A DNA stretch of 64,000 bases from Paraglomus brasilianum (GCA_910592345.1 CAJVPI010000021.1:1-64000), one strand, 5' to 3'. Shown: positions 125 to 62,979, counted from the stretch's first letter. A program made the numbers and translations. Notes: a model not told the origin generated them from the letters alone.

Positions 125-382
125 GTGTGGCGATCCGACAAGGCACAGAAAAATCTTGGAGGAGAGAATAATTCACCAGTAGCATCACATATGCATGTTG
201 AATTTAAAAGTACCAACAGAAACATAACATCATACTCAATGGCCGACTGTATGGTTGCATCAGCCTGCCCATCATTCTTTATAACAAAGATTTTCTTGAT
301 GACTTCACAAACGAAGAGCTAGCAATTGATAAAGTAATATCCAGAAGCATGGAGAACATTATTAAAGGTAAAAGGTGCAGCA

Positions 383-890
383 TTGAATGAATCTACCAAA
401 GATATATTTGGCTCTTTAATTGCCATTGAAATTCAAAATGCCAGACTTGACTCAGCATTAACTGAAAAACTTCATAAACTCAAAGAAAAGGCTGCTTTAA
501 TCATTGCAGAATGTAAAAACGAAATAGGGACAGGTACAGGTGGAAAAGATCCTGCCATTCTAGCATATGCTAAATATTGTTCTGCTGATGTAAATTTTCA
601 GTTTAATTTGTTCTAAATACTATTACTATATGCAGATTTATTTAGTTCTGTATTATTATTACCAATATATTATTATTATAGTAAACAAAAGAATCTGAAA
701 ATGTACCAATTGTCCTTAGCATTGCAGGTCCTTCAATCTGTATCCTTGAGGCTGTCTTTCTCAATGACAAAATTTTAATTGACCCACTAACAGATTATAT
801 TTGTGTTACACGATTGCTGTGGAATGGCAAACAGATGAAGATTTTGAATAGACTTTTTGAGGCATTATGACATGGCATAAAAAAATCTTA
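383..890 (+). pseudogene. Degraded fragment of a Glomeromycotina-type REase-fold/kinase-associated (Crinkler-like) gene
   Basis: Translates to IIAECKNEIGTGTGGKDPAI and, after an intron-like gap, VLSIAGPSICILEAVFLNDKILIDPLTDYI. These resemble motifs (ExKNEIG.GG.DP; IAGPW.CILGAVF) that I recall from expanded fungal effector/kinase families. Frames are broken and the segment is CpG-poor. Confidence 0.5.
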
Positions 891-1412
891 CATACACAGT
901 GGTTCTTCTCTTATTAAATACTATCATATTTTGCCAGGTGAAACTTTGTCAACAAATTCCTGCTAAAAACCCATTTATTTTGTTGCAGGAGAAAAGTTGT
1001 TCGAAAAAGCAAAATTTTTGTTACAACTGTATCAGGTGTTTAATTGTGACATTCTGTACCTTGATTATGTGGAAAAATTCAACCCCCTAAATTTCATATG
1101 TGCATATTAATATGTGACTTCAGACATGATTGATGCGGAATTTCAGAAAAGGTGACTGGTCAATAATTTTGTGAAATGTCCAATGACTACCATTGCTGGA
1201 ATTTTTAAGCATTTGATTTTAACTGGTATAGTTGTAATAGCTCTTTCTTTTTAACAAAGTCTATCTCCATAGGATCATCCAATGTCTCTTCCTCACTATC
1301 TGAATCAGGGTACCTCAGAAACTGGCTCTCTATAATTATTATCTTGAATAGGGGATAGCTTTTCGAAATTAGGTTCAACTAACCTTACCATGCTTTTATG
1401 ACTACTTTTCAT

Positions 1413-2599
1413 CTACTGCAGGAGAGATTGGTGAATTTTGACCAATGCTGTCAGCACTGCTTGCCTTCCATCTGGCTCTGCAAGATTGAAACCAGTTCTC
1501 AACCCATTTGCTCCTGGCCACCTTTTAATCACAACTGACTGATCTACTGGTAAACCTCTGCCAAGCTCCTCCCAATATGCTGCAGATATTACAGTCTTGT
1601 AAAGTGTAACATATGTAGAGATGATACGAACACCAAATATAGTTTGATTTCTATGTTCCTCAGCGAGACGATTATTTTCATCCCCAAGGGAGAGCATTTT
1701 GGCAGCAAGTTGTGCTTCTCCAAAACCATTCGATTTGCTGATTTTTTTTATTTTTCAGTTGTTTATCCTATTTTTGTAAAAAAGGTCATTGAGCAAACAA
1801 TAATTTGATTTGTCAAACAATTGAAACATACAGACCTCTATAATAATAACCACTAAAGAGGAATTTTCAATATTAATTACCTGCTGAAACTGACACGTCA
1901 CCAATTATTAATTCACAGTGTGGTTTATTTCTGGGTTTGAATGTAGTGCAAAAATTTAAGAAACCATTGGAGTGCACCATAAATTCAAGACAATTCACAT
2001 CGTTACTCACTTGACAATCAAGGGCCATGAATCCAGATCGAGTGTTCGGAGCAACAGATGGTTTACCATTGAGTCAGTAATAGTTTCACCTGTGCCTATA
2101 TCGAGACCTGCATTCTTGACGACAGCATGCAGTTTGTAGAGGAATGCTTTGACGTGTCTATCTGAGATTTTATCAAGCTTGCGAACATTGAAATCTCGCT
2201 TTTCGAGTACGTCACTGTTGATTTCGGGAACAAGGTATTGGCTCGGAAAGTCGGCGACTACATATTTAAAAATTGTTAATCCGAGTTCTCTAGGAGAAAG
2301 TCTAACACAAAATACTTACCGTCAATTGCGGGAATGATTTCATTATCACATATAGCGGGTTGGAAACTCGTTTTTAATATAGCAAGATCTTGGTTTTTAA
2401 ACAGGGATGCTGAGGGATTAATATAGACTGGGTTTAACTCATCACTGGATAAGATCTTTGGATTAGCTGTCGTGACTCTTTTTTGAGACATCTGAGCGGG
2501 GGGAAATAATATGCAAGTAGGTGAGACTAGGACTCTTTGTCGGAGTGTGTATGATGCAGAACGAGAAAACCTCACAACGAAACCAAGTAACGAAGCCAT
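1413..2599 (-). pseudogene. Multi-exon PD-(D/E)XK REase-fold gene with two apparent frameshifts
   Basis: Exons join by GT-AG introns: MASLLGF...PAIDG | VADFPSQYL...DLDSWPLIVK | NKPHCELIIGDVSVSA/VINIENSSLVVIIIE | DKQLKNKK/SKSNGFGEAQLAAKMLSLGDEN...IHQSLLQ*. The IIIE-DK and GEAQ motifs fit an REase fold. Frame breaks lie near 1880 and in the A-run near 1745; the second could be a homopolymer sequencing error. Confidence 0.6.
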
Positions 2600-2982
2600 T
2601 TTCGATCCGATGGTAAAATCATAGAGCGTGGGGGGAAAATCGAGATCGCACTCATTATGACACAGGATATATATCGATTAGATGCGTCAGACTAGCATCT
2701 CACATATTCTCAATTTATAATATCCATATCGCGCGATCAATTTTGTGATGACGTTCAACAGGATGCACAGTAAAGAATGTTTTATACAGTTAACCAAAAT
2801 TTTATTTTCTACAAATATAATAAAAGTAAAAGAACACGAATTAATATGGTGCAGTAGTTATATACATTTGTTTGCCTGATGCCTCGAAAGAGGTCCGTCT
2901 AATACAATATAAAAAACTTGGACCATAGCGAGACTGCATGGGAGGGAGCTCCAAAGCTTGCCCGAAGGCGACGACTACCCCT

Positions 2983-3438
2983 ATTCTCTCGTCCCGCTAG
3001 GTCCAGAGCTATCACTATTTTCCTCCTCTTCTACCTCTGTATCTAATTCTCGCTCATTATCAACCCATAGCCTAATAAATTCTATGGTTTCATCAGCGGG
3101 ATTACGGGTTAAACGCTTGTGAAATTTCCGGATAGTCGCATCTTCAAGACGCTGGCCCAGCTCCCTTATTTCATTGATGACTCGGTTCGTTTCTCTAGTC
3201 GACGTTTGTCTTTGATCGAAATCTTGCCAGAGAGTTTGAACATCGCCAGTATAATTTTGAGGCGTTCTGTTAGGCCCGGACCGTCGAGAACCAGAATTAC
3301 TGTCGCGACTGCCAACACCATTTTGATGTCGCGAATTTCATAGCCCATTAGAGTTATATTGCGGTCAAGATCGTTGATTTTTTGTAGCAATTCGGTATTA
3401 GCGCTTGAGTTTCGCCGTGATCTTTTGATAGCAGACAA
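2983..3438 (-). pseudogene. Fragmented intronless ORF of unknown function in a compositionally distinct (CpG- and TpA-rich) segment
   Basis: ORF 3166-3438 continues in a shifted frame as ...KRLTRNPADETIEFIRLWVDNERELDTEVEEEENSDSSGPSGTRE*. No family recognised. Confidence 0.3.
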
Positions 3439-6400
3439 TTCCGCAGTTATACGGTTTTCCTAGTGACCTTTAAACTAGACTTTCCTGCTCACGACTCTTA
3501 GTGTCGATCTGTCCTCGATTCTCTATCGCGGGACAAGAGGCGATTATTCTTTTCCGATATAGGAATTAATGGTTCCAACGGTTATATCGAATAATTCAGA
3601 GAATGAGATATCAAACATATATGTTCATTGAATAAATGAAATACCCGTTTATAAACAGTAATATTATATAAAAATAAAGAATCAAAGGAATCTAACACTT
3701 CGAACACACCGAAACTAGCTGAGAATAAACAAATTTGAGGGTCGGCTCTTTGACTTTTCCTGTCGTATTGCCTTAACCTGTAGGAAGGGGAGATTATTCA
3801 TCACAGTAACAATTTGTCATACAGTACTTTCTTGTTGTGCAAAGTGAGCAAAAAAAAATAGAGGTTGAAAAGACATAATAAAAAAGTCAAAAATTTTTTC
3901 AAGGCAACAAATCAATATAGTGTCGAGCCAACTACTGCGGGAGAGCGTTCAGTAATTGGCCTTGGGATTTAGCTCTTTCAATTGAGGCTTGGTCAACCTC
4001 TATCTACTCTTGTGTAAATCGCTAATATAGTTAGTGACCTTAAAATTGTCTTTAATTATACTCGCAATGATCGATCGGTATAACGCGGATTTTCGACTGT
4101 CAATTATGCTATGCCTCTACTACTACCCTTTATCGGTAATGGGATTTAGTTTCGATCGTTCGTAGGATACATCGGGGATAATAAACGCGTTCATTAGAAA
4201 CCCGCGGTTTACGACTGCAGAATCGCTGAAGTAGCCATGGATGATTAATGACCAATATGTATGTCGTTTATTACATAAATAATAAGAGTACAGGTATTAA
4301 GAGAACGGAATCCAATTTATAAGATAAAGATCATGTTGAAGATTAGCTGATCGTAAGATATCGTTTACTACAGACTACTATTGTTTAAATATAAATCAAA
4401 ATTGGCCCGATTTGACGTTTGTCGCAAATGTCTGTCCCACCGACCATACGGTCCTGGCAATACGAAAGTACAAAGTTTATCGAATGGATTTCTTGTTCTC
4501 GTCCTATAAAATCAAGATCTTTTTTTCCCCCGCTTTACCTTAGCAGTAAGGGTACTGTTGACTTAGAACCAGACGTGGTTGTCAACGAAAGATTCAAGTC
4601 ACCTGTACAAATATTTCCTAGTCGAACAATGTATAAGAACTAAAGATTGATAATGGAATGTTTGTTTGCGACGATAAAGTGTTCTTACTCGAATCAAAAG
4701 CACAAAATGACAGATGTGTATAAAAGAATTATTATCTATGGCAACCTGGCTCACTTGTAAATCTTGACATTCAGGAACATGTAGAAAACCTCAAAAGTTA
4801 CAGATAGTCCGGAATTCAAACAATTGTTTATATCGGCGTTGCCTTTGGTTCGTTATTTCCATTGGAGTTGCTATTTCTTTCGTATAGGCCTATCTCTTGG
4901 AACTGTTGACGAGTAGTTTTTCCGAGAATCAATGTGATTACTCTGTTATCATATGAAGTGTTTCTTATTTTTAACGTGTTGGAAAAATAAAAAATGATAT
5001 ACATACAGTATATCGATCATTGCTTGATCCCTGTTATTGTGGATATATGCAGGTGACTTTTATTCTCCATAACATGCATATCTCACAATTTTCGACTATT
5101 TTTCTCATCGGTCATATCTTTAGCATCTTGATCACACAGCCATTGCACGTAGGTTTGTGCATAATAGCCCCCTGGTTAGTCACACGAGTATAAACATGTA
5201 AGTAGTGTGCTGCTATTATTAGATTATTGACAGAATGATTGGTTTCTATGCTTAGTTATACCGAAACGGGCACACTTATGAATATAGGATATTCTCCGTC
5301 TAAACAGTGGTGAAAATCAAGAGGTTGATGGATACTAATTTGGAGAAACAGGTGATGTCGGGAGTTGGTGGTTTTTTTTTTTTTTTGACAAAATGATTTA
5401 CTATAACAGGATGTCGTTATGTAATGCACTGCACCAGAAGATCGACTACCTTTTTCGGGTTGCCATAGATTAACAACTTTGATAAGAAATGTTTAAGTCG
5501 ACATTTTGACACTACTGTAGTTTTGTACATGCAAAGTTTGCGTCCATCGATAATTGGTCAAGGTGTTAACGATGGAAATGACGATTCTTAAACTCGCATT
5601 AATGCTCATATCGATATATTACTTTTCACTTTCTGTTCTCGGTAATCCAGTAACTGTTCTGAAACGTTTTGGTTACCGAGTTTCCGCGGTTATACGGTAC
5701 ATCAAAAGTATGCATTTTATTAGTATTGATATCTTTACTTTCTTGATTAGACTTTGATAACCGGTTTTCAAGCTGTTATCATCTTTTGTGATACCGGCAA
5801 AGCCATAGCCTCGAAGAAGAGCGGGATTCTATTTTGGTTGGATGTTTGGATGCGATGATGCACAGCAACCAACTATTTTGAGTATGTTGGACAAGAAAAT
5901 AGTCTGGCTTTTTTTACTTTGAACCAATTCTCGTTGTAAAAGCTCGTGCCTCCTAGCTGAGAAAAAAACCTTGCCACAATCCTGCTTCTGACAGGTAGAA
6001 ATTAGCGCACTCAAATAACTTAATTCACGTGTGACAAATAAATGGTTATCACAATGAAATCAGTAGACTTTTCGAAAGTCTCCTAGACAAAAAATTCACC
6101 AAACTAGTCTTTAATGGTAAGTTTGCTACATTTCATTGTAAACAGGCTCGAGTCTATCAAGATGCGCAAGATTACAAATGTGTTAATATTAATATGGAAG
6201 ACAAAATCCTAAACCGTTCAAGGGGCGTTTTTTCGAGGCTTACAAATGTTTCTGGCAATTTGATGTTGTACAGGGTTCCTTAACATTTGCTGGATTGATG
6301 TTTGCCCATTCGGCCCGTTGACTTTTGGTCAAGTAGTTCATTAATGCTTGTCCAAACAATACGAGTATTAATATTAATATGAACTTCTTTAAACAATACA

Positions 6401-13125: not shown

Positions 13126-13350
13126 TGTCACAGTTATTAAGATTTTTCACATCGAAAGATTGCGTGATAATCCGTGATAAGAAAAATATGGGTATAAAAG
13201 CGATCCATACAATTTTTTTCTCTATCACTTGTTTCCGAATCCATCAAATCCATCTCTCTTCAATCTTTCAATATGAGCATCAAATTAGAAGGTTCAGAAG
13301 CATCTACGGTGTCCTGGGAGACTAGACAAGCCTCCCAAATTAATATGGCA

Positions 13351-13925
13351 TTTAAATAGTGTTTATTAACATGGTATTGAGTAGTGTTTATAATAATGTC
13401 AGAAAGTATGACTAATGGCCACAATACAATAGATCTTTGCGTATATTGACATGCCATTGGAAGCATTGACGCCAGAGCAAAAGGAAGATGTTGTCAACGT
13501 CAGTCTTTCTAGATAATGTCAATATCCGCAAAGCGATACACGATTGAAAGATATGACGGCGAGATAATTGGGAAAGATTTATTTATCAAAGTGAGTTTCT
13601 GAAAGAAACAATGTATATGTAGAGTTTTGATTATTAGATTTGAATCCACTTAGGTTTTCTATGACAGAGATCCAGATCGTAGTCGCGCTTTATCTAAAAT
13701 TAGCTTTGTTTTGGCCGATGCCGAATTGCTATCCCACACGCGGCCAACCCTTTTCCCCAGAACCAAAATCCAGGAATAACTACGACACTAGCAACTTCAC
13801 TTGAAGTTCCTCCTAGATCCCCATATACCGTGAATAGAGGTAGCAGTCTGATTTATTATAGAATGGATTGAAACGAGCACCTCGACCTAAGATGTCGTTG
13901 GAGAATTGAATTCAATATTATGCTT
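13351..13925 (+). pseudogene. Internally deleted, indel-riddled copy of the 14765-15436 Uma2/REase-like gene (left arm of an inverted duplication)
   Basis: 13351-13600 matches the reverse complement of ~15245-15436, and 13620-13925 matches the reverse complement of ~14765-15015. The ~15030-15240 segment is missing from this copy. Confidence 0.75.
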
Positions 13926-14070
13926 AATGTAATTTCTCAATCATAATCCATAAATATATATAACAAAGTAGAAGGGGACACCACATCAATATCTTTTCTC
14001 TTCATTAGAATACCAATATTTTCCATCGCGTCTATCAGTCCTGTCTTCCAACCTCATTAGCCATGTACTT

Positions 14071-14740
14071 CAGGGGGGGGGGGTAACCAAAAGTATTGCA
14101 CGGTTGAAATTTAATAAAATTGTTAATATTAATATGTAACGGCCTACGTAATTTTTATACCATATTTGCCTATATATTGGCCAAACGGATTTTTGCCTAT
14201 TGCTTTGATTAATCTGCTACAGATTGTAAAAGCTGGTTTTAAAAATATCGATTTTTCGCATAATACATCCTTTGTGGAGAATGTTTCACTGTTAACCTTC
14301 ATAAATTCTTTCTGACTTTCATCACATTCTTCCTCAACTGCAACCAGGCTTTCAAAACTGATAGACCCATCTTCCCAGATTATTCTTTTTTTCCCTAGTC
14401 TTCCACAGTCCAATGTCTTCTTTCTATAGAAATGCAAAATTTTTCTTATAAAGTGCTTGGCAAATTGGTTTTGTAGATATTTGTTTTTGATTTCAGTAGA
14501 AAAAATTTTGTTTATTTTAATTTTTGAGAACCATAGCCTTCAATATTTGTCTTATGGCTGTCATAAAGCATAGTCAAATGGTCATTTTTTAAAAGCTCAT
14601 AATTCATAAGCTGCAACACATCTTGTAACTGTTGTTCGATGACATTCCACAGCTTTTGCAATTTCTGCATTATTGTGGCCTAATTTTTAGTGGCAATAAT
14701 GCTTCTCTTTGTCTAGAGGTTAATTAAATACATCTATGAA
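14071..14740 (-). mobile_element. Tc1/mariner-like transposon remnant (HTH region plus one TIR-like end)
   Basis: Minus strand encodes LGHNNAEIAKAVECHRTTVTRC (HTH), YRKKT and RIIWEDGSISFES (resembling WSDES.FE), all frame-broken. A Tc1-type terminus cagggg...taaccaaaagtattgcacgg lies at 14071-14103. Confidence 0.6.
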
Positions 14741-14764
14741 TTATGGTTGAGAAATTACATTAAG

Positions 14765-15436
14765 CACAATATTAAATTCAATTCTCCAACGACATCTCAG
14801 GTCGAGGTGCTCATCCCAATTCATACTATAATAAACCAGTGGAGTTGCTAGTGTCGTAGTTATTCCTGGATTTTGGTTCTGGGGAAAAGGGTTGGCCAGC
14901 AATTCGGCATCGGTCATGTATTCCCGAATAAAGCTGATTTAGATAAAGCGTGACTACGATCTGGATCTCTGTCATAGAAAACCTAAGTGGATTCAAACTA
15001 ATAAGCAAAACTTTACATTGTTTCTTTCAGAAAAAAATTAATACAATTACCTCTATCCATACGTTTGGTGGCGGGCACCCGTTTGCAATGGGTCTTGAAC
15101 TTTGTGCAAATGTTGGGGTCCGAAACCAAATGCCAAACGTCAGGTTGCCTCCCATCACACATATCATATCAATATTTACAGCCCAACTTGACATAGCCGA
15201 ATGTGCCAAATTGAAATGGATTTTAGCCTTATTATTATGTTGACGAAACTCACTTTGATAAACAATTATCTCGCCGTCATATCTTTCGTGTATCGCTTCA
15301 CGGATATTGACATTATCCACGTTGACAATATCTTGCTTGTCAATATAGTAAAGATCTATTGTATTGTGGCCATTAGTCATACTTCTGACATTATTATAAA
15401 CACTACTCAATACCATGTTAATAAACACTATTTAAG
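14765..15436 (-). pseudogene. Uma2-like PD-(D/E)XK nuclease-fold gene, degraded (right arm of the inverted duplication)
   Basis: ATG at 15416: MVLSSVYNNVRSMTNG...GIWFRTPTFAQSSRPIANGCPPPNVWIEV | FYDRDPDRSHALSKIS. The P.PNVWIEV motif resembles Uma2-type endonucleases. The 3' part is frame-broken. Confidence 0.5.
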
Positions 15437-15861
15437 TACCAATTAATATTAATTTGAGTTTTCGAGTTGGACCCTTATTTTCTGTGCTCCATATTAATTT
15501 GAGTGCCATAATAATTTTACAGCTGTGCTACTAAAACTAATCATAACTTTCCAGCCATTTTTATTTTGAATTCAGGTGACACTTTGTGCAGCAAGTGTCC
15601 ATATCACGTGATCATACACGACATAGTCCAAGCCTTATAGTATTGTAAAGAAGACTATTAATTAATACAATGAGTAGTCAATTCAAATAGAAACATAATC
15701 TGGAAGACGAAACAACAATCTGCATTTTGGAAATAATCGTCCATCTATCTTAAAAGAGAAAACAAATCATTCGTGTCTCTTTATTTTCTAAAAATTTCTC
15801 ACCAATGATATAAGTTTATTAAATCTGACCGCCTGAAAATTTTACCTCGTATACTGTTGGG

Positions 15862-42330: not shown

Positions 42331-45300
42331 TTAATATTACTATATTTATATCTCCTATCACGATCAACAAGAATAGGGGGGAGCATAACGATAACGATAA
42401 CGACGCAATCTGCTAATCAGAAGGTCGAATGCAATAAATCATGGATTGCACTTTTTCAATTAAGTAATCATATGGACCATAACAAATTGAACATAACGTC
42501 ACATTTACCATAGGCGTCATGTCTTCATTCTATACCACATTCTATGTTTCGTTATGCCGAACATAAGAAAATAAGTAACGTTACTTATTTGAACGAGTAG
42601 TAGGACAAAATTGGGGGGCGGATTGAAATTACATTAATTAATATTAATACCCAGATATTTGCTGTCGTTTGTTTATATTCTTGTCTAACTATGCCTGCTA
42701 TTTAGTGACAATCGTACGATTATACAAATTGATCATTCAGCATAACATTGATATCGAAACATCACTGATAGCACTTTGAAAATTAACAAATCTACTGTAT
42801 CTGCACATTGTCAAAGAATCAGACGCCATTGTAGTTAAACATAGAGCAAGTTTATATATCATCGTGCGATTGTTCGCTGTAAACGAAGTAGTATCAGCAA
42901 TAAAACTCCAATACGATCTTGAATGTAATCGAAGCTACCAATGAAGACCAAGAGGAAGAAAAGTCCTTCCGTGAACTAGAATATTATCTCACGGAAACTA
43001 AAGGCATTATCGTCGAACAATAACTTTGTTAGTGTGGATGACATTAAACAGGTCCACGTGATAATTTGCAATACGTAACACAACTCTTACCAAGTTATTT
43101 AAGGCGTAAACACGACAAACGCGGTACGCCTACTTCTGGTTAAGAACTCGGACGGCCAGAACAAGAATATTACCTGTGGTTGGAAGTACTACAAGACCAA
43201 CCTTAATTGCGAACTTCGCGTACCCACTTATCTCGAGTCACTCACGGTTCCTATCGCGTATTTCATTAATTTCTTTATGTCCTATTAGAAAAATGGTGAC
43301 CCCGCCAGGCTTTCGAGCGATTTTAATAATAACTGTGTGGGACGTCATAGCACTTCTCTGGACTTTTTACAATCGAATCAAACTCGTGATGTTAATAGAC
43401 GAAAATCACGTATCTTGCGAAAAGTCTGGAACGGCTAGCGAAACCACTAATTTCGGGGAAAGATCGAATACAGTGGGCTCGGGAACATCGGGAATGGACT
43501 GCAAATGGTTGGAAAAAAGTAATACGGTGGCAAACCACACTGCTCTCGAATTGTAAACCTAACATGGGCATATTCAAGGTATTAATTATATAAATTATGC
43601 TATGTATAAATTAACAAATAACGGGTATATCAGTGAAAACGTGACTTTACTGCGGATATATCAAAAACGGAACGCTAATCTATGTTATTGTATACCCATA
43701 GTCTCTATAGCTTTGAATACATTCCACACGAGACAGGAAGATTTTTTTTATACTTCAACATGAGCTCGATTATAAGAAAAAGTTCAACCAGTCGGAAATA
43801 GAATTTTTCGAAACCCACAACGACTGGATTTTAACTGGTTGATCACATCGTCTTCCCGGATAAAAAGAAGTTGAGCAAAGAAAGAAAAACAAAAATTATT
43901 CAGACTCTTAAGTTGTGCAAGCAAGAAGAACTCTCGATATAGGCGATTAGCGCAATCCTTTAAACTCTGCAAAGTAGGCAATGGATCAAGAGAACTGTGA
44001 GCATTATACGAATATGGCATTGGGGTGTAAGGTTTTCTTGAAGAATTAGTTCACTTATTTGTGTTTTGTACCTTTGAAAGTACTGAAGTATATATAAGTG
44101 GTTACAAGAACTCGGACGGCCAGAACAAGAATATCTTGCGAAAAGTCTGGAACAGCTAGCGAAGATAATAATGATGTTGGAACCAGTAATATTGCAATAG
44201 ACCTCAAATATTGCCCTAACTCCGGAACAGTTAAAAAGTTGCAGGCGTCCTTGGAAAAATGTTCCGAATCGGTACTATGAAAAGCGATACGTGGACAAAG
44301 GAGATCCCTAATGAAGCGCGTCGTCTTGTTCTCCCGGAATAATACCTTTTATGATCAGCTCACGATCGTGGTGATCGCAATCCAAAAATGCTTGATTATA
44401 TGGATGATTCGTTTTTAACCATATCATTATTATTGGAGAAATCAATTACGGAATAGTTTTTATGGATTGAAATGGTCGTTTATTTCATTGGGAAGATATG
44501 TTGGGACTGTTGTGAAGATGATAGAAATGTACACAAATACAAAAAAAATAAATCTTAATGTGATATTTGCACTTGCGAGATAGAATTTAAAAAATACAAG
44601 ATTGCAAACAAAATTACAATTTGCTTTTACATTATTTGCGAAATAGTAAAGAGTTTACTAAATAAAAATTTAGCATCAACGTGTACCGTTTAACAATAGG
44701 GTGAATTGGAACATATTGGTGGGAAAAAGGTGAAAGGACAAATTTATGATTTTATTAAATGCCAAGCGCAAAACTTTATGTAAGCAGATACAGAAAACTT
44801 TAAGGATTGACATTTTATTCGAAAAATAGGAACGGATAAGATTCAATACATGATGCAGATACTATTTCAAGATTTACTAACTCCCAGGTTCAAACGGTTA
44901 TAGATCGCATCACCGAAAAGCCTCAAACGGATCCCTTGGCTTCAGCTGAGGTAAACGCTTCGTCCGCGCCTCCTACTTCAATCGATGTCTCGCATTCGGA
45001 GAGGAGATGTCATCGAAGATTTCCCAATTTATTATGATGATTGGGTAGAGGAAGACGAAGTGATACTGAATCTATAGACTCGAATCAAATATCATTCCGA
45101 AAAAATAGATGCTCGACAAAAGATTCCTCCCGGGTTACAAAGTATGGATAAAATACAAATCTTAGATCTTGCAATAAATATACTCAGCACAAATAATAAA
45201 ACTATTCTTGCTTCTGGTATTTATATCCCGAAGATGAACTCATGCATTTTATGTATCCGGATGAGGATGTGGATGTGGATGAGCGTGGAGAGAAAGAATT

Positions 45301-57396: not shown

Positions 57397-60251
57397 TCAG
57401 GTTTTGGTTTTCTTTATCTTGGGAGTAGAGTTTGAAAAAGTCAAGGTATCTTCCTGGAGCGCATAATTGCGTCTTCGTCTGAGTCTTGCGTGTTCGATCT
57501 TGAGCGTGATGCAAAGGTCCATCAGCCTGCTTAATCGCACCTTCAAAATAATTATAGTTGATTATGGCATGCTGTATATATTGACGAGAAACTTTTCAGA
57601 AAGAACAAACCTCCAGGGAGCGTAACATAATATGCACATCCTCGTAGGCAGGTAGCTCTTGTGCCGTCGCGGGTAGCTCGGCCTTGTCAATTAATCCAAA
57701 TCGATAAATACCTGGCGCTCTGAGGTCCATTGCGTAGAGTCGTAGTTGCCAGCCTAAGGTGTGGTATATATTTTTTTAGTCTTCGCATCAATAGAAAACC
57801 TAGATCTTAGCAATTTTAGAACACGTACCGACGACCTGGCAGCCAAATACTACAATCTTCATGTAATATTCTGTAGGAAGGCCGGGATAAGTTTTCATAA
57901 TTCGATTAATCATGTCCCTCATGCCAACCATGATCTTGAGTTTATCGGTCCAAATCTTTTTGGGGCAACCTGCCGGCAGGCCCCCCGAGACTTCGCAAAT
58001 AAAACCTTCCAGAGCTGGTCCCACAGGAAAGTCGATAATAAGATCTGTCTTTTGACCAATGCGAGCACGCTCATCGGGATCTTGGCCATCGATGCGTCTT
58101 TCTTGACTAGCGAATAACTGTTGTTCCAGCCTGAGAATGGAGGGATCCAATAAGAAGGAAATGTGTAAGGTGAAGAAAGTTTACTTATAAGACAAAAGCT
58201 CGTGTTACCAGCGCTTGCGGAATTTTTCTCGAAGTGGGTCCAAGCTGATGTTAAATACGGGTGCCACGAAAAGAACCGTATGCTCACCTTCCGAGATCGG
58301 CAGGTTGAGGTGTTCAAGATGCGACCTCATTATTGTCAGTTGAGCATTCAGCAAAGGAGCAGCCTGTTGGTTATTAATATCCTATTTAAAAGAAAAAGAA
58401 CAGAATGAAGCATGAATATAAAATGATAGTTACAAAACACTGCCGTTACCTTCCCATTGTCAAAAAGGTTCAGATCAGCTTGATTGGGTTCCGCCATCGT
58501 CCAATCCACATCCCTCTGAAAATCATCTACGATGTTTTTCCATATCGTCACAAACTTGTCTTTTGTCGCTTTGTGTTGACCAGTCAAGTCGAGAATGCCC
58601 CAGTAGGGGGGACTTCCAAAGGGAGATTTTTATTAATAAATCTCCCCCAGAGAACCCTTGCAAGAAAAATGTAATACTTACTGAAGTTCGGGTGTCTTTT
58701 TCGGCAACTTTTCACGCACGGAATGAAATTGTTTGATGATATCTACATTACCGATACTGTAAGAGCCCCAAACGACAGCCACTAGTGTCTCAGATCTTGA
58801 TCTTTGTTGCACAGTTTCCTCCTCTTCAAAGAAATACTCCAGTTCCACTTTATCCGTCAGCTCGTCAAAGTATTCCTTTGAAGTTACAACCTCTTGTTGA
58901 CGGGTGGGCGATTCTTCTTCTTTATCAAGTATACATAAGGAAGATAGACGATTTAAATAAGCATATAAAAACTAAAAAGCATATAATATCTTCAGCAGAG
59001 TTGTTTCCTAGAATACCATCGTTCGCATCATCTTCTGGCTCCTGTTCTTTTCTCTGGACATAATTTATCAAAATATACATTTAATGACGTTTTAGTAAAA
59101 ATAGCAGAAGCAGCCTGCTTAGAACAAACCTTTTTGCTGCTATGCACAGATTTATTCATTAAAGGCGTTATATTCTGCGCCGGTAACTGCTGGTGACCTT
59201 CGCCATTCCTACCAATTAAAAAAGGATTGTCACCGGCCTCGATGGAGAAGTCGATAGCCTGTTGCTAAGTCAGCATAATTGTTAGTGGTATTTCCAAAGA
59301 GGCCAAGTAAAATAGGAAGTAACTGGCCCAGTAATTCCGTCTCTTTAACTCGGGTCATGCACAATTTGCCAAAATTTTCACTAGTACCTTATTTCTATTG
59401 AGATCGCCCGCCGTAATGAGTTCATGTCTTCTGTTTCCAATTGCAGTAGAATGCACGTTCAGTTCCCGGCTGCGGTCGAGGACATAGTTCAACTAGCAGA
59501 AAAGAGTCAGTTGTAGATAATACAACAGTGATATGAGTGACAGTTAAACATTTACATCTTCAGCCTCAATATGCGACAACATCAGTTGCTTCTGGAATTC
59601 GACATGCTGGAGGTCACGTTGTAAGTTCAAACTCTTGCGATTACTCCAGAAGGTCCTGACTTCTGCAGAACATTTGCTGGCCTGGAAAAGCTCAACAAGT
59701 GAGAAAAAGCATAATGATACAACAATGATTTACACAGATAGAGGTACTATTGACGAACTGCAACGAGCTCAGCGACCCAACACTGGGGCAACTCAGCGAT
59801 CACACCAGTGTGTTGCAGCAATAGCTCAGCGACCTACCAAGAGCCCCAATCAGCTCAGCGACCGATTGTGCCCACCATACAGATCTCAGCGGATCTCTAT
59901 TGCAAGGGGGCAGGGCTCTTGGCTCGTCAATAGTACCAAAACGCGTACCTGCCAGTCATTGAGTAGCACCTGCGCCCTTTGTCCACGAGTGTTGTCTTTG
60001 TCTTTTTTGCAAATGGTGATAAGGAAATTTTTGAACGCACTATGTTCGGAGTCATGGTCCAAAAATTCAGCGCTTTTGGATCTCCACTGCAGGAAATCGA
60101 TAAGCGACCATTGTGGGATGTCGGTATTTTGGAAGTAGTCGGGCAATTTAAAAGTATCCTGTAGAATAGATTTGGTTCAGTTTGACGAAGTTTCAGGGAA
60201 AAAAAATGATAGACTTACGTCGATATCCTTGTCGATCACAGCCGAGGACAT
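57397..60251 (-). CDS. Intact ~12-exon gene for a PD-(D/E)XK REase-fold (Crinkler-effector-like) protein
   Basis: Traced as one open frame across GT-AG introns: MSSAVIDKDID|DTFKLPDYFQNTDIPQWSLIDFLQW...LLNDWQ|ASKCSAEVRTFW...|...HPPYWGILDLTG...|...SEGEHTVLFVAPVF...RW|LEQQLFASQERR...GQKTDLII...GFICEVSGG...KKIWTDKLK...VFGCQVVG|WQLRLYAMD...|VRLSRL...STPKIKKTKT*. The KTD...ICEVS arrangement fits an REase active site. Confidence 0.8.
59743..59937 (-). ncRNA. Candidate structured intronic RNA: five hairpins with identical CGCUGA hexaloops inside a perfect 14-bp closing stem
   Basis: Closing stem ggtactattgacga (59743-59756) / tcgtcaatagtacc (59924-59937). Five CTCAGCG copies on the plus strand (59768, 59792, 59825, 59854, 59885), each at a hairpin apex. 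Stem mismatches resolve as G-U pairs only on the minus (sense) strand. Confidence 0.75.
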
Positions 60252-61430
60252 CGCGCGACAAGAAGAATCTAGGACTACCCAATTTCGCGTTTTTTGATAG
60301 ATCGGCAAGTACACCAAATTTAGGATATATCCGCAGTAAAGTCACGTTTTCACTGATATATGATAATAAAAATACTCATATAACAATAAATCATGTGAAG
60401 AGTATGATTTTCGTAATCTTTTACAATTTTATTGAGAGAATTATTATTATTTCACTTTCCATAATATAATTGTTTGTTCAGTTCACGTAACTTCCTCTTC
60501 CTTCAATAAAGATGTAATTTGTCACTACAGTATAAAGTAAATGTTTCAACAATTGTCACGGTTAATGAAAAAGCAAAGTCAGCTGATTTACCCTAATAGC
60601 CAAAAATACATGTTTCAGAGCGTGCGTGTTTATAATAAATATTGAATAGCAAACTCTTGCCCAGTCATTCGATAGGCCTTGCTTGGGGTTGGCGGAAAAT
60701 CATACAAACAGCAATCTCGAATTCAATACCAATCAAATTATGCTGCAGAAGTAAATTCGAACAGACCTTGCTGAGGTGTTGGAAAGAAAAAAGAATAAGA
60801 AGTGGCCAATGCAAAAAGCCAAGAAGCTAGGACATAAAATTTATGCGTTATTTGCGAATTTTGTGAACTGGTTATCAGACTTTCCGGTAGGTCTAGAAGA
60901 TAGAATAAGATACAGTCCTCATGTTACACTATTACGCGTTATGATCAACTAGTAGATATTGCATGAATATGCGGCCCGGGACATTGCCAATTTAAGTTTA
61001 TTAACAAACAATCTTACGATGCGTTGTAATCGTATAACTCCTAGTGGTCCAAAAAAGTCCAACGAATCATTATCCCTTCCATACAACTTGATTATTGTTT
61101 CTATTTTGCAATGGCCTCGCCAAAGCGTCATTTTTATGAAATACTTTGCCAGAACTCGTTACTGTTTACTGGTTGGTTCAAAACAGCGAATGCATGAACG
61201 TAATTTATTGCCAATGAACACTACATACATAGATGCAAACGATATTAATGGAATCGAGGGAAATCGAAAGTGTAATGTCAAGAATGAATAGGGAATAAGA
61301 GCTGTAAGGAATGAAGGGGGTATTGTCCTTTACATTTGTTTTACACCACAAAACCTGCGGGACACACCAGTAGTAAAGTACAAGAATTTTTTGATACAAA
61401 CCGACGGTTGTAATATACAATCGATTCACT

Positions 61431-62979
61431 TCAAATCAATAATGCAACTGTAACCATGACGACAACCCAAAGTCTATTGTATACCCTCGCGCTGTTATCA
61501 ACACCGCTATTACTATGTTCACTAACAGTTGAGTTTCCATAAGGATTCCATCCATCTCCAGATCCATCATACCCATCGAATCCACTATTGTCATCGTCCC
61601 CAGCTTTAGACGTGCCATTAAGGCCTGGCAATGCCTGTGGATTCCACACTGTCCAAAATTCACTTGGTCCAGTTGTTATGCCAATAAGTTTGTTTAAAAG
61701 GGCTGTGTAACGTCCATCAGGATCTCCATAATGATCACGAGCTGCGTACAAGGGCGTGGTAAGCGTATCCGGTGGCTCTTTTGCTTTTTTTCCGTTCTTC
61801 AGATCGGCTAGAAAACCTTCTGTGATTGGAACCAAGAAATCGATAGCTGTTTTTATCGTTGCGCCTTGGTCGGTTTTCGCTTCCCACACGTTAGTGCCAT
61901 TAAGCTTGTCCGATAGACGGGCGATGTATACTAGCGCAACCAAGTTAAAGCATTGGTAGTGGAATGGCTTTGTACGCACTGCTTCTAGAGGTTGTTCTCC
62001 GTCTTTGTTTATTTGACCTTTGTATATACCGTTGACATAGCTGCTAATCAATTTACGAGCCTCATCGTCTCTGTCTGCAAAATGTAAATAGGTAGCTGTT
62101 TGTGCTATATGGAACGAACCGTGGTTGTTGGCAGCAGCCTCTTCTTCTTTGCCAAGGTCTGAGGTGAGCAACCAAGTTGAGTAATCACTAAACCATGCTT
62201 TAAGGCCTTTTGTTAAGCTGGTGCCCACACTCGACTTTTCGAGCAGCGCGACGACTGGAGGAACGTATACGAACGATCTTAGATCCAGTATACCTTCTGG
62301 TCTACCCTCATTGCGACCTTTACCGCGTATGACTTGTCCAAAGAACAATTCCGGTTTCATGAATGTTTTGTTGTTCAAGAACCAAGTATCCAAAAGGTGT
62401 GCAGTCTTCTTGGCGAGATTATCATCACCAGATAACGCATATGCAAGTGCCATTGTGGTCACATCTGTAGTCATGCTACTAGCATCCTGTGGGTCAGATA
62501 TTTTTCCAATGTCAGGGACGTATTGTCCGTCTTTTTGTTCATACGGACAGTCTGTCTGTTCGTCCTGCACATTTTTAATACCTTTACAGTTTGGCCACCA
62601 GTAGGGAGCCCATGAGTAGAATTCGTGTAGATCTTTGTTGGGAGGAATGACGGAGGAATTGATGACTGAGTATGGATTAGGATTAGCGAGAGCTTGTTTG
62701 GCTTTTCTACGTATTGCTTCAACTGCTGAACTTGCTACTCCGGGATTGTCTAAATATTTGGCTTTGAATGTGTTCAAACCATCAATATCGAGAAGATCCA
62801 TTTGGAGGCCAGCTGTTATGATCAAAATGCGATATCAATACTAGATTCGTAATAAAAGTCACTTTTGCATATATATATAGTCGACTAGATCTGATGGGTT
62901 TGTCCATCTCGCAACTCTTACCTTCAGCAACTGAAATCCATATTGTCAGTAGAGCTGCCAGCAGCGTTGGTATCTTCAT
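61431..62979 (-). CDS. Secreted alginate-lyase-family (PL5/chondroitin AC-alginate lyase-like) protein with hydrophobic C-terminal anchor, 2 exons
   Basis: Signal peptide MKIPTLLAALLTIWISVAE, then an intron; HEFYSWAPYWWP, QKDGQYVPD, LDTWFLN..TFMKPEL, AANNHGS, GEQPLEAVRTKPFHYQCFNL; Gly/Ser/Asp linker and a hydrophobic tail LWVVVMVTVALLI*. Confidence 0.9.

Follow-up and report, generated by a model that had tools for sequence, protein, structure and literature searches.

Introduction

Large families of orphan genes with a nuclease fold are present in mycorrhizal fungi, which must somehow avoid harming themselves. In Paraglomus brasilianum, a gene of this fold carries in its second intron a 195-nt element that is predicted to fold into a branched tree whose hairpins share one loop. 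What is such an element doing there? The window analysed here, a stretch of 64,000 nt (GCA_910592345.1, CAJVPI010000021.1:1-64000), leaves five answers to weigh: the element may be (i) a cis-acting part of the pre-mRNA, (ii) a tolerated insertion, (iii) a trans-acting RNA antitoxin, (iv) a repeat kept for the peptide that it encodes or (v) a derivative of a bacterial repeat. If the protein reads its own intron, this would be an undescribed form of RNA-based nuclease control in eukaryotes; if the element came in by insertion, it would mark a structured mobile element that is not yet catalogued. A compact RNA that shows one loop five times on covarying stems is a handle open to direct test.

Table 1. 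Features of the host gene, its second intron and the element (window positions)
Feature	Position	Strand	Basis
Host gene of 12 exons with an open frame of 602 aa; N-terminal header helical, C-terminal domain of PD-(D/E)xK fold	57397..60251	-	frame, joints, model
Possible 8-bp hairpin with sixth CGCTGA, coding exon 2	60058..60080	-	local fold; pair probability in context
Intron 2, 267 nt, GTACGC...CAG, phase 0	59682..59948	-	joint in one run X11 contig
Branched element, 195 nt	59743..59937	-	folding, motif count, window ranking
Outer 14-bp stem, 5' arm, with donor-like GTACTA at 59936	59924..59937	-	pairs with probability 0.99 in context
Arm A, 10-bp root (59922-13 with 59846-37)	59837..59922	-	predicted fold
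Extended hairpin 1, arm A	59912-59869, loop 59891-86	-	predicted fold
Hairpin 2, arm A	59868-47, loop 59860-55	-	predicted fold
Central hairpin 3	59822..59836, loop 59831-26	-	weakest; hexaloop form probability ~0.1
Cryptic in-frame exon, 75 nt (25 aa), inside element	59759..59833	-	in database protein P0001; skipped in X11 contig
Arm B, 7-bp root (59818-12 with 59764-58)	59758..59818	-	predicted fold
Extended hairpin 4, arm B	59811-59780, loop 59798-93	-	predicted fold
Hairpin 5, arm B	59778-65, loop 59774-69	-	predicted fold
Outer 14-bp stem, 3' arm	59743..59756	-	pairing count, context fold
Candidate branch site CTCAC	59699..59703	-	inferred; 42 nt past outer stem

The host gene and its product

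An earlier note on this DNA, made from the sequence alone, called the host an intact nuclease-fold gene, and both the run of 602 codons without a stop and the structural matches bear this out. Joints for five of the 11 introns (1, 2, 8, 10 and 11) are present in contigs of RNA or RNA-guessed runs, and a loose end fits intron 7. In run X18, use of an alternative donor at 58287 in exon 9 skips 157 nt (58131-58287), which shifts the frame to a stop at codon 451, inside the nuclease domain. A contig of the same run (59167-59431) is unspliced through intron 4, at 123 nt the second longest, and reflects either retention or DNA.

Over exons 10 and 2 the gene is 100% identical to the database protein P0001, labelled Paraglomus brasilianum. 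A further 33 proteins, mostly labelled Glomeromycota or Jimgerdemannia, are 63-84% alike over exon 10 and have very different N-termini; for exon 2, P0001 was the only relative among four candidates. A profile search returned 250 representatives at E 0.001 or better, and all ten that were looked up are Glomeromycota or Jimgerdemannia. Viral and prokaryotic scans, which gave 35 and 20 stretches, yielded no relative.

A first structure model (pLDDT 36) was discarded; that of the C-terminal domain, built with 105 sequences, reaches a pLDDT of about 90-98, and on this model the domain is predicted to have the restriction-endonuclease core fold. Two mitoribosome chains, which we take to be mL65 and mL37, head the structural matches (Z 10.8, rmsd 4.9, 216 residues aligned; Z 10.5, rmsd 9.1, 241 aligned), so the host fold can sit on RNA. 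Matches to the nucleases BpuSI (Z 9.3, rmsd 3.5, 157 aligned) and DrdV (Z 8.0, rmsd 3.2, 143 aligned) follow, and in the Atlas the TM score to a PDDEXK_12 cluster is 0.69, with an aligned part below the naming bar. Foldseek gave nothing at E 0.001 or better, and Pfam assigned no family to the protein. Putative catalytic residues are kept (E405, E434, D461, E478, K490 and D494), and conservation among the aligned rows of the 105 sequences is 98% for D461, 68% for E478, 87% for S480, 96% for K490 and 100% for D494. The core motif reads E-x-S, not E-x-K. No RNA-binding fold could be recognised in the header (best feature score 0.78, TM no higher than 0.56), nor does it have a clear relative.

A non-random block in intron 2

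The earlier note placed intron 2 and the element correctly and rightly called the intron unusually long: the other introns of the gene measure 60-123 nt and have a GC content of 0.27-0.39, against 0.50 in intron 2. The element begins 11 nt past the donor, and its removal (59937-59743) leaves an intron of 72 nt, again as claimed. That intron 2 is spliced is supported by a joint skipping all 267 nt in one RNA-like contig of run X11 (depth 2.2, run type guessed), which shows ordinary splicing. No contig of runs X11, X17 or X18 covers the element, and contigs cannot show the absence of retention or of a stable excised RNA. Retention would end translation after 101 codons, at the stop in loop 1 (59888-59886) that the note named.

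All five CGCTGA copies reported in the element are there on the minus strand, at 59891, 59860, 59831, 59798 and 59774, with spacings of 31, 29, 33 and 24 nt and spacers that are unlike one another. The loop described as invariant is indeed identical in the five copies, but the true invariant is the 7-nt CGCUGAG with a pyrimidine 5' of it. The closing pair thus varies between U-G and C-G, as the note said, but by a one-sided change. No 7-mer occurs five times in any of 20,000 shuffles of the 195 nt (the maximum, four, was reached once). The sense strand folds at -94.3 kcal/mol (z -6.46; matched by 0 of 200 shuffles), and among 639 windows of 195 nt tested over the 64 kb the best-folding one overlaps the element. 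The element is real and non-random.

Six of the 22 CGCTGA occurrences in the 64 kb have at least five flanking pairs, counted with a loop that may take in at most two more bases on either side: those in the element and one in exon 2. The sixth is striking locally (the background rate for at least 8 bp is 0.0044), but it is out-competed in all three contexts folded, with a pair probability of 0.0, and was therefore dropped as support. At 59690-59697, close to the intron's 3' splice site, GTTGAGCT matches the motif core GCTGAGCT of the element at seven of eight positions.

Predicted fold of the element

In the predicted architecture, the outer 14-bp root opens into a junction from which arm A, hairpin 3 and arm B branch off, and each arm is a root stem bearing one extended and one short hairpin. 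The two arms have this architecture in common and unrelated stem sequences. The scaffold stems are all perfectly Watson-Crick paired, as the note had claimed for the closing stem; besides the two arm roots, the same is true of the 7-bp extension in arm B and the 5-bp TGCCC/GGGCA extension in arm A.

The five-hairpin form described in the note is predicted, but it sits 1.4 kcal/mol above the minimum-energy fold at 37 C, in which hairpins 1 and 2 alone are formed. Closing-pair probabilities for hairpins 1-5 are 0.89, 0.78, 0.11, 0.31 and 0.21 at 37 C and 0.92, 0.81, 0.08, 0.62 and 0.51 at 25 C; the minimum fold at 25 C and at 15 C includes four of the five, and hairpin 3 stays minor. Hairpin 5 is present in arm B, but the full model leaves it 4 bp, since the arm B root takes up its last G. 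A register with a C-G-closed GCUGA pentaloop was rejected at 7 kcal/mol worse than the hexaloop form, as was a longer stalk covering the 5' splice site, which is no better than chance (z -0.3 to 0).

The loop-proximal stems of the five units can be compared at five pair positions each, and 23 of these 25 cells pair on the sense strand (92%, against 67% in shuffles). Seven cells carry two-sided changes, and three of the five positions change on both sides. The covariation score was reached by none of 500 shuffles, and among the 120 permutations of the arms the true one pairs best, with or without G-U pairs. The pattern is thus better explained by a kept hairpin structure than by tandem duplication, as the note had argued; with only five paralogous units, and a structure read from these same sequences, the test supports a kept structure and is no proof of selection. 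The note further held that the many G-U pairs work only on the transcribed strand. Such an asymmetry stands for the loop-proximal stems, of which the antisense strand pairs only 13 of 25 cells, but not for the whole block, which folds almost as well in antisense (z -6.04), and eight of the ten loop-proximal G-U pairs fall at two positions common to the copies. The strand argument for structure at the RNA level is weaker than was stated.

Copy number, ends and relatives

In the source DNA run X2 the gene is spanned by one contig at depth 31.3, and depth is flat over the element. The contigs of this run (34.5 Mb, one of the four runs of the sample) hold no second copy at 80% identity or more; copies less alike, or outside these 34.5 Mb, would be missed. 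Within that scope, the near-identical copies that would have marked the element as a MITE in the terms of the note were not seen. Forty nucleotides upstream of the gene, at 60291-60360, lies a repeat for which the same run has several contigs at depths of 170-1000 against 31; it is therefore high-copy, and the copy test does detect repeats. In three soil runs, contigs at least 99% alike cover 59724-59878 (X5), the stretches up to 59759 and from 59911 (X6) and the stretch from 59903 (X7), with no listed difference inside the element; run X10 does not cover it. A joint across the element is found in none of the four.

The terminal inverted repeat pairs at 14 of 14 positions. No target-site duplication flanks the outer ends, and once 4 or 5 nt are trimmed off, TA or GTAC stands as a direct repeat; such a duplication follows automatically, because the repeat contains a palindromic word.

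A metagenome scan by alignment gave 107 stretches and four loci, all starting at residue 232 or later and none reaching intron 2. CGCTGA is absent from these short loci, which come from the C-terminal half of the gene, and one of them, L121, keeps introns at like places by eye. Pattern scans of viral contigs gave at least 120 and seven loci; in the first set, those with two or more stemmed CGCTGA (six of 124) are tandem repeats. Intron 2 had no plasmid match by blastn and three phage records at E 0.9. Between 57000 and 61000, Rfam covariance models at E up to 5 place nothing on the element and one chance-level match elsewhere (15 bits, cut-off 50), so the element is without an Rfam family, in line with the note. 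A CGCUGA hairpin-loop motif was not found among the matches listed (best 20 of 72) in published papers, a search whose scope is main texts outside subscription, and GCUGA occurs nowhere in the main texts of two fungal RNA surveys as available. The element is single-copy as far as seen and uncatalogued, and its function is one that we infer.

Elsewhere in the window

The repeat upstream of the gene is a hairpin-like element of ~42 nt, with an inverted copy, 95% alike, 16.7 kb away at 43626-43667. Around that second copy, 43110-44172 contains direct repeats that are rearranged, 29 and 41 nt long (families D11 and D17), perhaps from a decayed duplicated gene. A long interrupted inverted repeat at 13346-15441, with arms of up to 116 nt that are 88-100% complementary, may be an element of fold-back or TIR type or may stem from an inverted duplication. 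At 341-3459 there are several minus-strand ORFs of 92-133 aa; the four scanned have no Pfam match above the cut-off, and one ORF gives the impression of another orphan Glomeromycete nuclease-type gene. The neighbour of the host gene is one long ORF that encodes an alginate lyase domain (61431-62834; PF05426, E 2.6e-63).

Splicing context and proposed mechanism

The branch-point consensus is CURAY. The last 45 nt of intron 2 lack CTRA, and the candidate branch site CTCAC is predicted to be open (unpaired probability 0.73). The donor-like GTACTA is predicted to be paired, as are most signals of the cryptic exon, with unpaired probabilities of 0.00 for its branch (CTGAT), 0.22 for its acceptor and 0.06 for its donor. 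A reading of the loops as branch-point decoys (GCUGA-G against CURAY) is neither favoured nor disfavoured by a crude count of 33 sites. Zipper stems have been defined as stems of at least 6 bp that lie at least 10 nt from the donor and no fewer than 20 nt away from the branch point, with linkers of 42-85 nt in total (PMC12350175, in the part available). The outer stem is separated from the donor by 11 nt and from the candidate branch A by 42 nt, a total of 53 nt, and its 14 bp are predicted to form with a probability of 0.99; given the putative branch point, it falls within the length and distance limits of that definition.

These observations are consistent with a reading to which we give an even chance: that the element is a cis-acting pre-mRNA module of the nuclease-fold gene, read by a protein. 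The tree closed by the 14-bp stem would expose CGCUGAG on each of its five hairpins, and an RNA-binding protein that recognises them would set the amount of correctly spliced mRNA. The outer stem is predicted to act as a zipper, making the 267-nt intron look like one of 72 nt, and the fold to bury the cryptic donor together with the signals of the cryptic exon. That the loops are invariant in all five hairpins while their arms covary points to a reader of single-stranded nucleic acid; a protein would recognise the invariant loop on its variable stems, and five copies would give avidity. The reader would probably be the gene's own product, acting in negative feedback through retention or inclusion of the cryptic exon, which is the weakest step of the proposal; alternatively, it may be a host RNA-binding protein. 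Against the module reading weigh a Watson-Crick scaffold that is nearly as stable in antisense, three hairpins (3-5) that are minor at 37 C, a longer stalk at chance level, a header in which no RNA-binding fold was recognised, ends that fit a TA or GTAC duplication, and a single joint that shows ordinary splicing.

A wider conjecture, which has a small chance of being right, is that in early-diverging fungi the genes of this fold each bring along, in an early intron, a multivalent RNA partner of their own: a branched RNA whose gene-specific loop code is read by the cognate protein, shutting off its own splicing or holding the protein inactive. If true, eukaryotes would have an RNA-protein system of toxin control in which headers are swapped and loop codes change in step with them.

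Alternative explanations

On the unlikely side, but the strongest of the alternatives, is a non-autonomous insertion that the host tolerates. It would be of fold-back or MITE-like type, or have been copied via a single-stranded intermediate; its repeated motif would serve its own mobilising protein, and the host would splice it out because the terminal inverted repeat closes it. Such an origin would account for a sharp GC-rich block that leaves a normal intron when removed, for the perfect inverted repeat with its TA or GTAC after trimming and for a folding that is nearly strand-symmetric, and unclassified repeats make up 24% of the Rhizophagus genome (PMC8647823, in the part available). Against it stand the lack of any other contig at 80% identity or more on the element in run X2, the soil runs, three of which hold parts of the element and none a joint across it, and a direct repeat that comes with the palindromic word; moreover, all five motifs run in one direction, in loops with covarying arms, and the loop CpGs are intact in five of five. 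The outer stem alone would suffice for an insertion to be tolerated; it leaves five invariant loops on covarying arms unexplained. A trans-acting RNA antitoxin, quite improbable in our estimate, would suit repeated RNA units that are co-transcribed with an intact nuclease-fold gene in a closed, very stable fold, and the mitoribosome chains at the head of the structural matches fit it too, but the domain is conserved in the 33 relatives with no sign of such an RNA in them yet.

That the repeat is kept at the protein level as an alternative exon, with the fold secondary, is very unlikely. Motifs 3-5 do share one frame (V/I-A-E-L three times) in the stop-free exon, which has AG/GT ends and is included in P0001, yet motifs 1 and 2 lie outside it in other frames, at spacings of 31 and 29 nt, the run X11 contig skips it, the peptide repeat is present in P0001 only among 177 proteins, and the nested stems remain unexplained. 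Derivation from a bacterial interspersed palindromic repeat beginning GGTCGCTGAGCT is rejected as close to refuted. By eye, about half of 54 prokaryotic loci with three motifs belong to one such repeat family, with 120 copies in genome G003 and 39 in G001; these genomes were picked by the motif, however, and 150 unpicked genomes of one phylum have at most three copies, against up to ten of a control word. Likeness beyond the forced core is at control level (score 55, equalled or exceeded by 11 of 40 controls), and bacterial copies of the motif mostly occupy long stems or simple tandem arrays rather than the loops of a nested tree. As a bacterial feature in its own right, the interspersed repeat GGTCGCTGAGCTTGTCGAAGCG occurs in G003, G001 and G002 (L186-L197), across several phyla, as inverted doublets and tandem arrays of truncated units; its four 15-nt forms were found in no paper searched.

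Comparison with known systems

Three likenesses drawn in the note do not amount to membership. CsrB and RsmZ are free-standing bacterial sRNAs with GGA in their loops, whereas the element lies in an intron of a fungal gene and has no GGA in its loops. The iron-responsive element has a CAGUGN loop and a bulged C five pairs below it and sits in a UTR; here the loop is CGCUGA, hairpin 2 has 8 bp without a bulge and the position is intronic. MITEs and fold-back elements, the comparison left by the insertion account, resemble the element in being short, closed by an inverted repeat, intronic and possibly flanked by a TA or GTAC duplication, but neither copies nor an empty site were seen here, and nested internal stems and one-way loop motifs set the element apart. 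The third likeness, to type III toxin-antitoxin RNAs, consists in repeated RNA units beside a nuclease gene; as described in the accessible part of PMC3401426, those are bacterial pseudoknots formed from tandem repeats upstream of an RNase gene, whereas the element is a set of nested hairpins in a spliceosomal intron, irregularly spaced and with unlike spacers.

The host protein shares with Crinkler-related REase proteins, which are expanded in mycorrhizal fungi, a variable N-terminal header joined to a restriction-endonuclease-fold domain (PMC5289972 and PMC6131194, in part). Membership among the Crinkler effectors was rejected: LxLFLAK/LxLWKV and HVLxxP are absent, the header is helical, not ubiquitin-like, and the protein has no Pfam match.

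The loop of the MAT2A hairpins, which we take to be UACAGAGAA, is unlike CGCUGA. As far as PMC10578476 is available, MAT2A hairpins hp1-6 resemble the element as proposed here in being a cluster of like hairpins with one protein reader, METTL16, that controls intron detention and mRNA stability, and differ in that they lie in the 3'-UTR, are conserved and are methylated. Introns of fungal ribosomal-protein and tRNA-synthetase genes likewise hold structured RNA proposed to bind the gene's own product, but with covariation across species and known RNA-binding hosts (PMC8216456, in part), whereas the covariation here is among the five units of one intron. Zipper stems of Saccharomyces introns, of the RPS17B type, are also placed near the donor, where they shorten the distance to the branch point and hide cryptic splice sites; five identical loops on a branched tree are not part of their description in the available text of PMC12350175, and here the stem sits in a Glomeromycete gene with a nuclease fold. 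By analogy, the element may work like a zipper stem combined with a MAT2A-type hairpin cluster.
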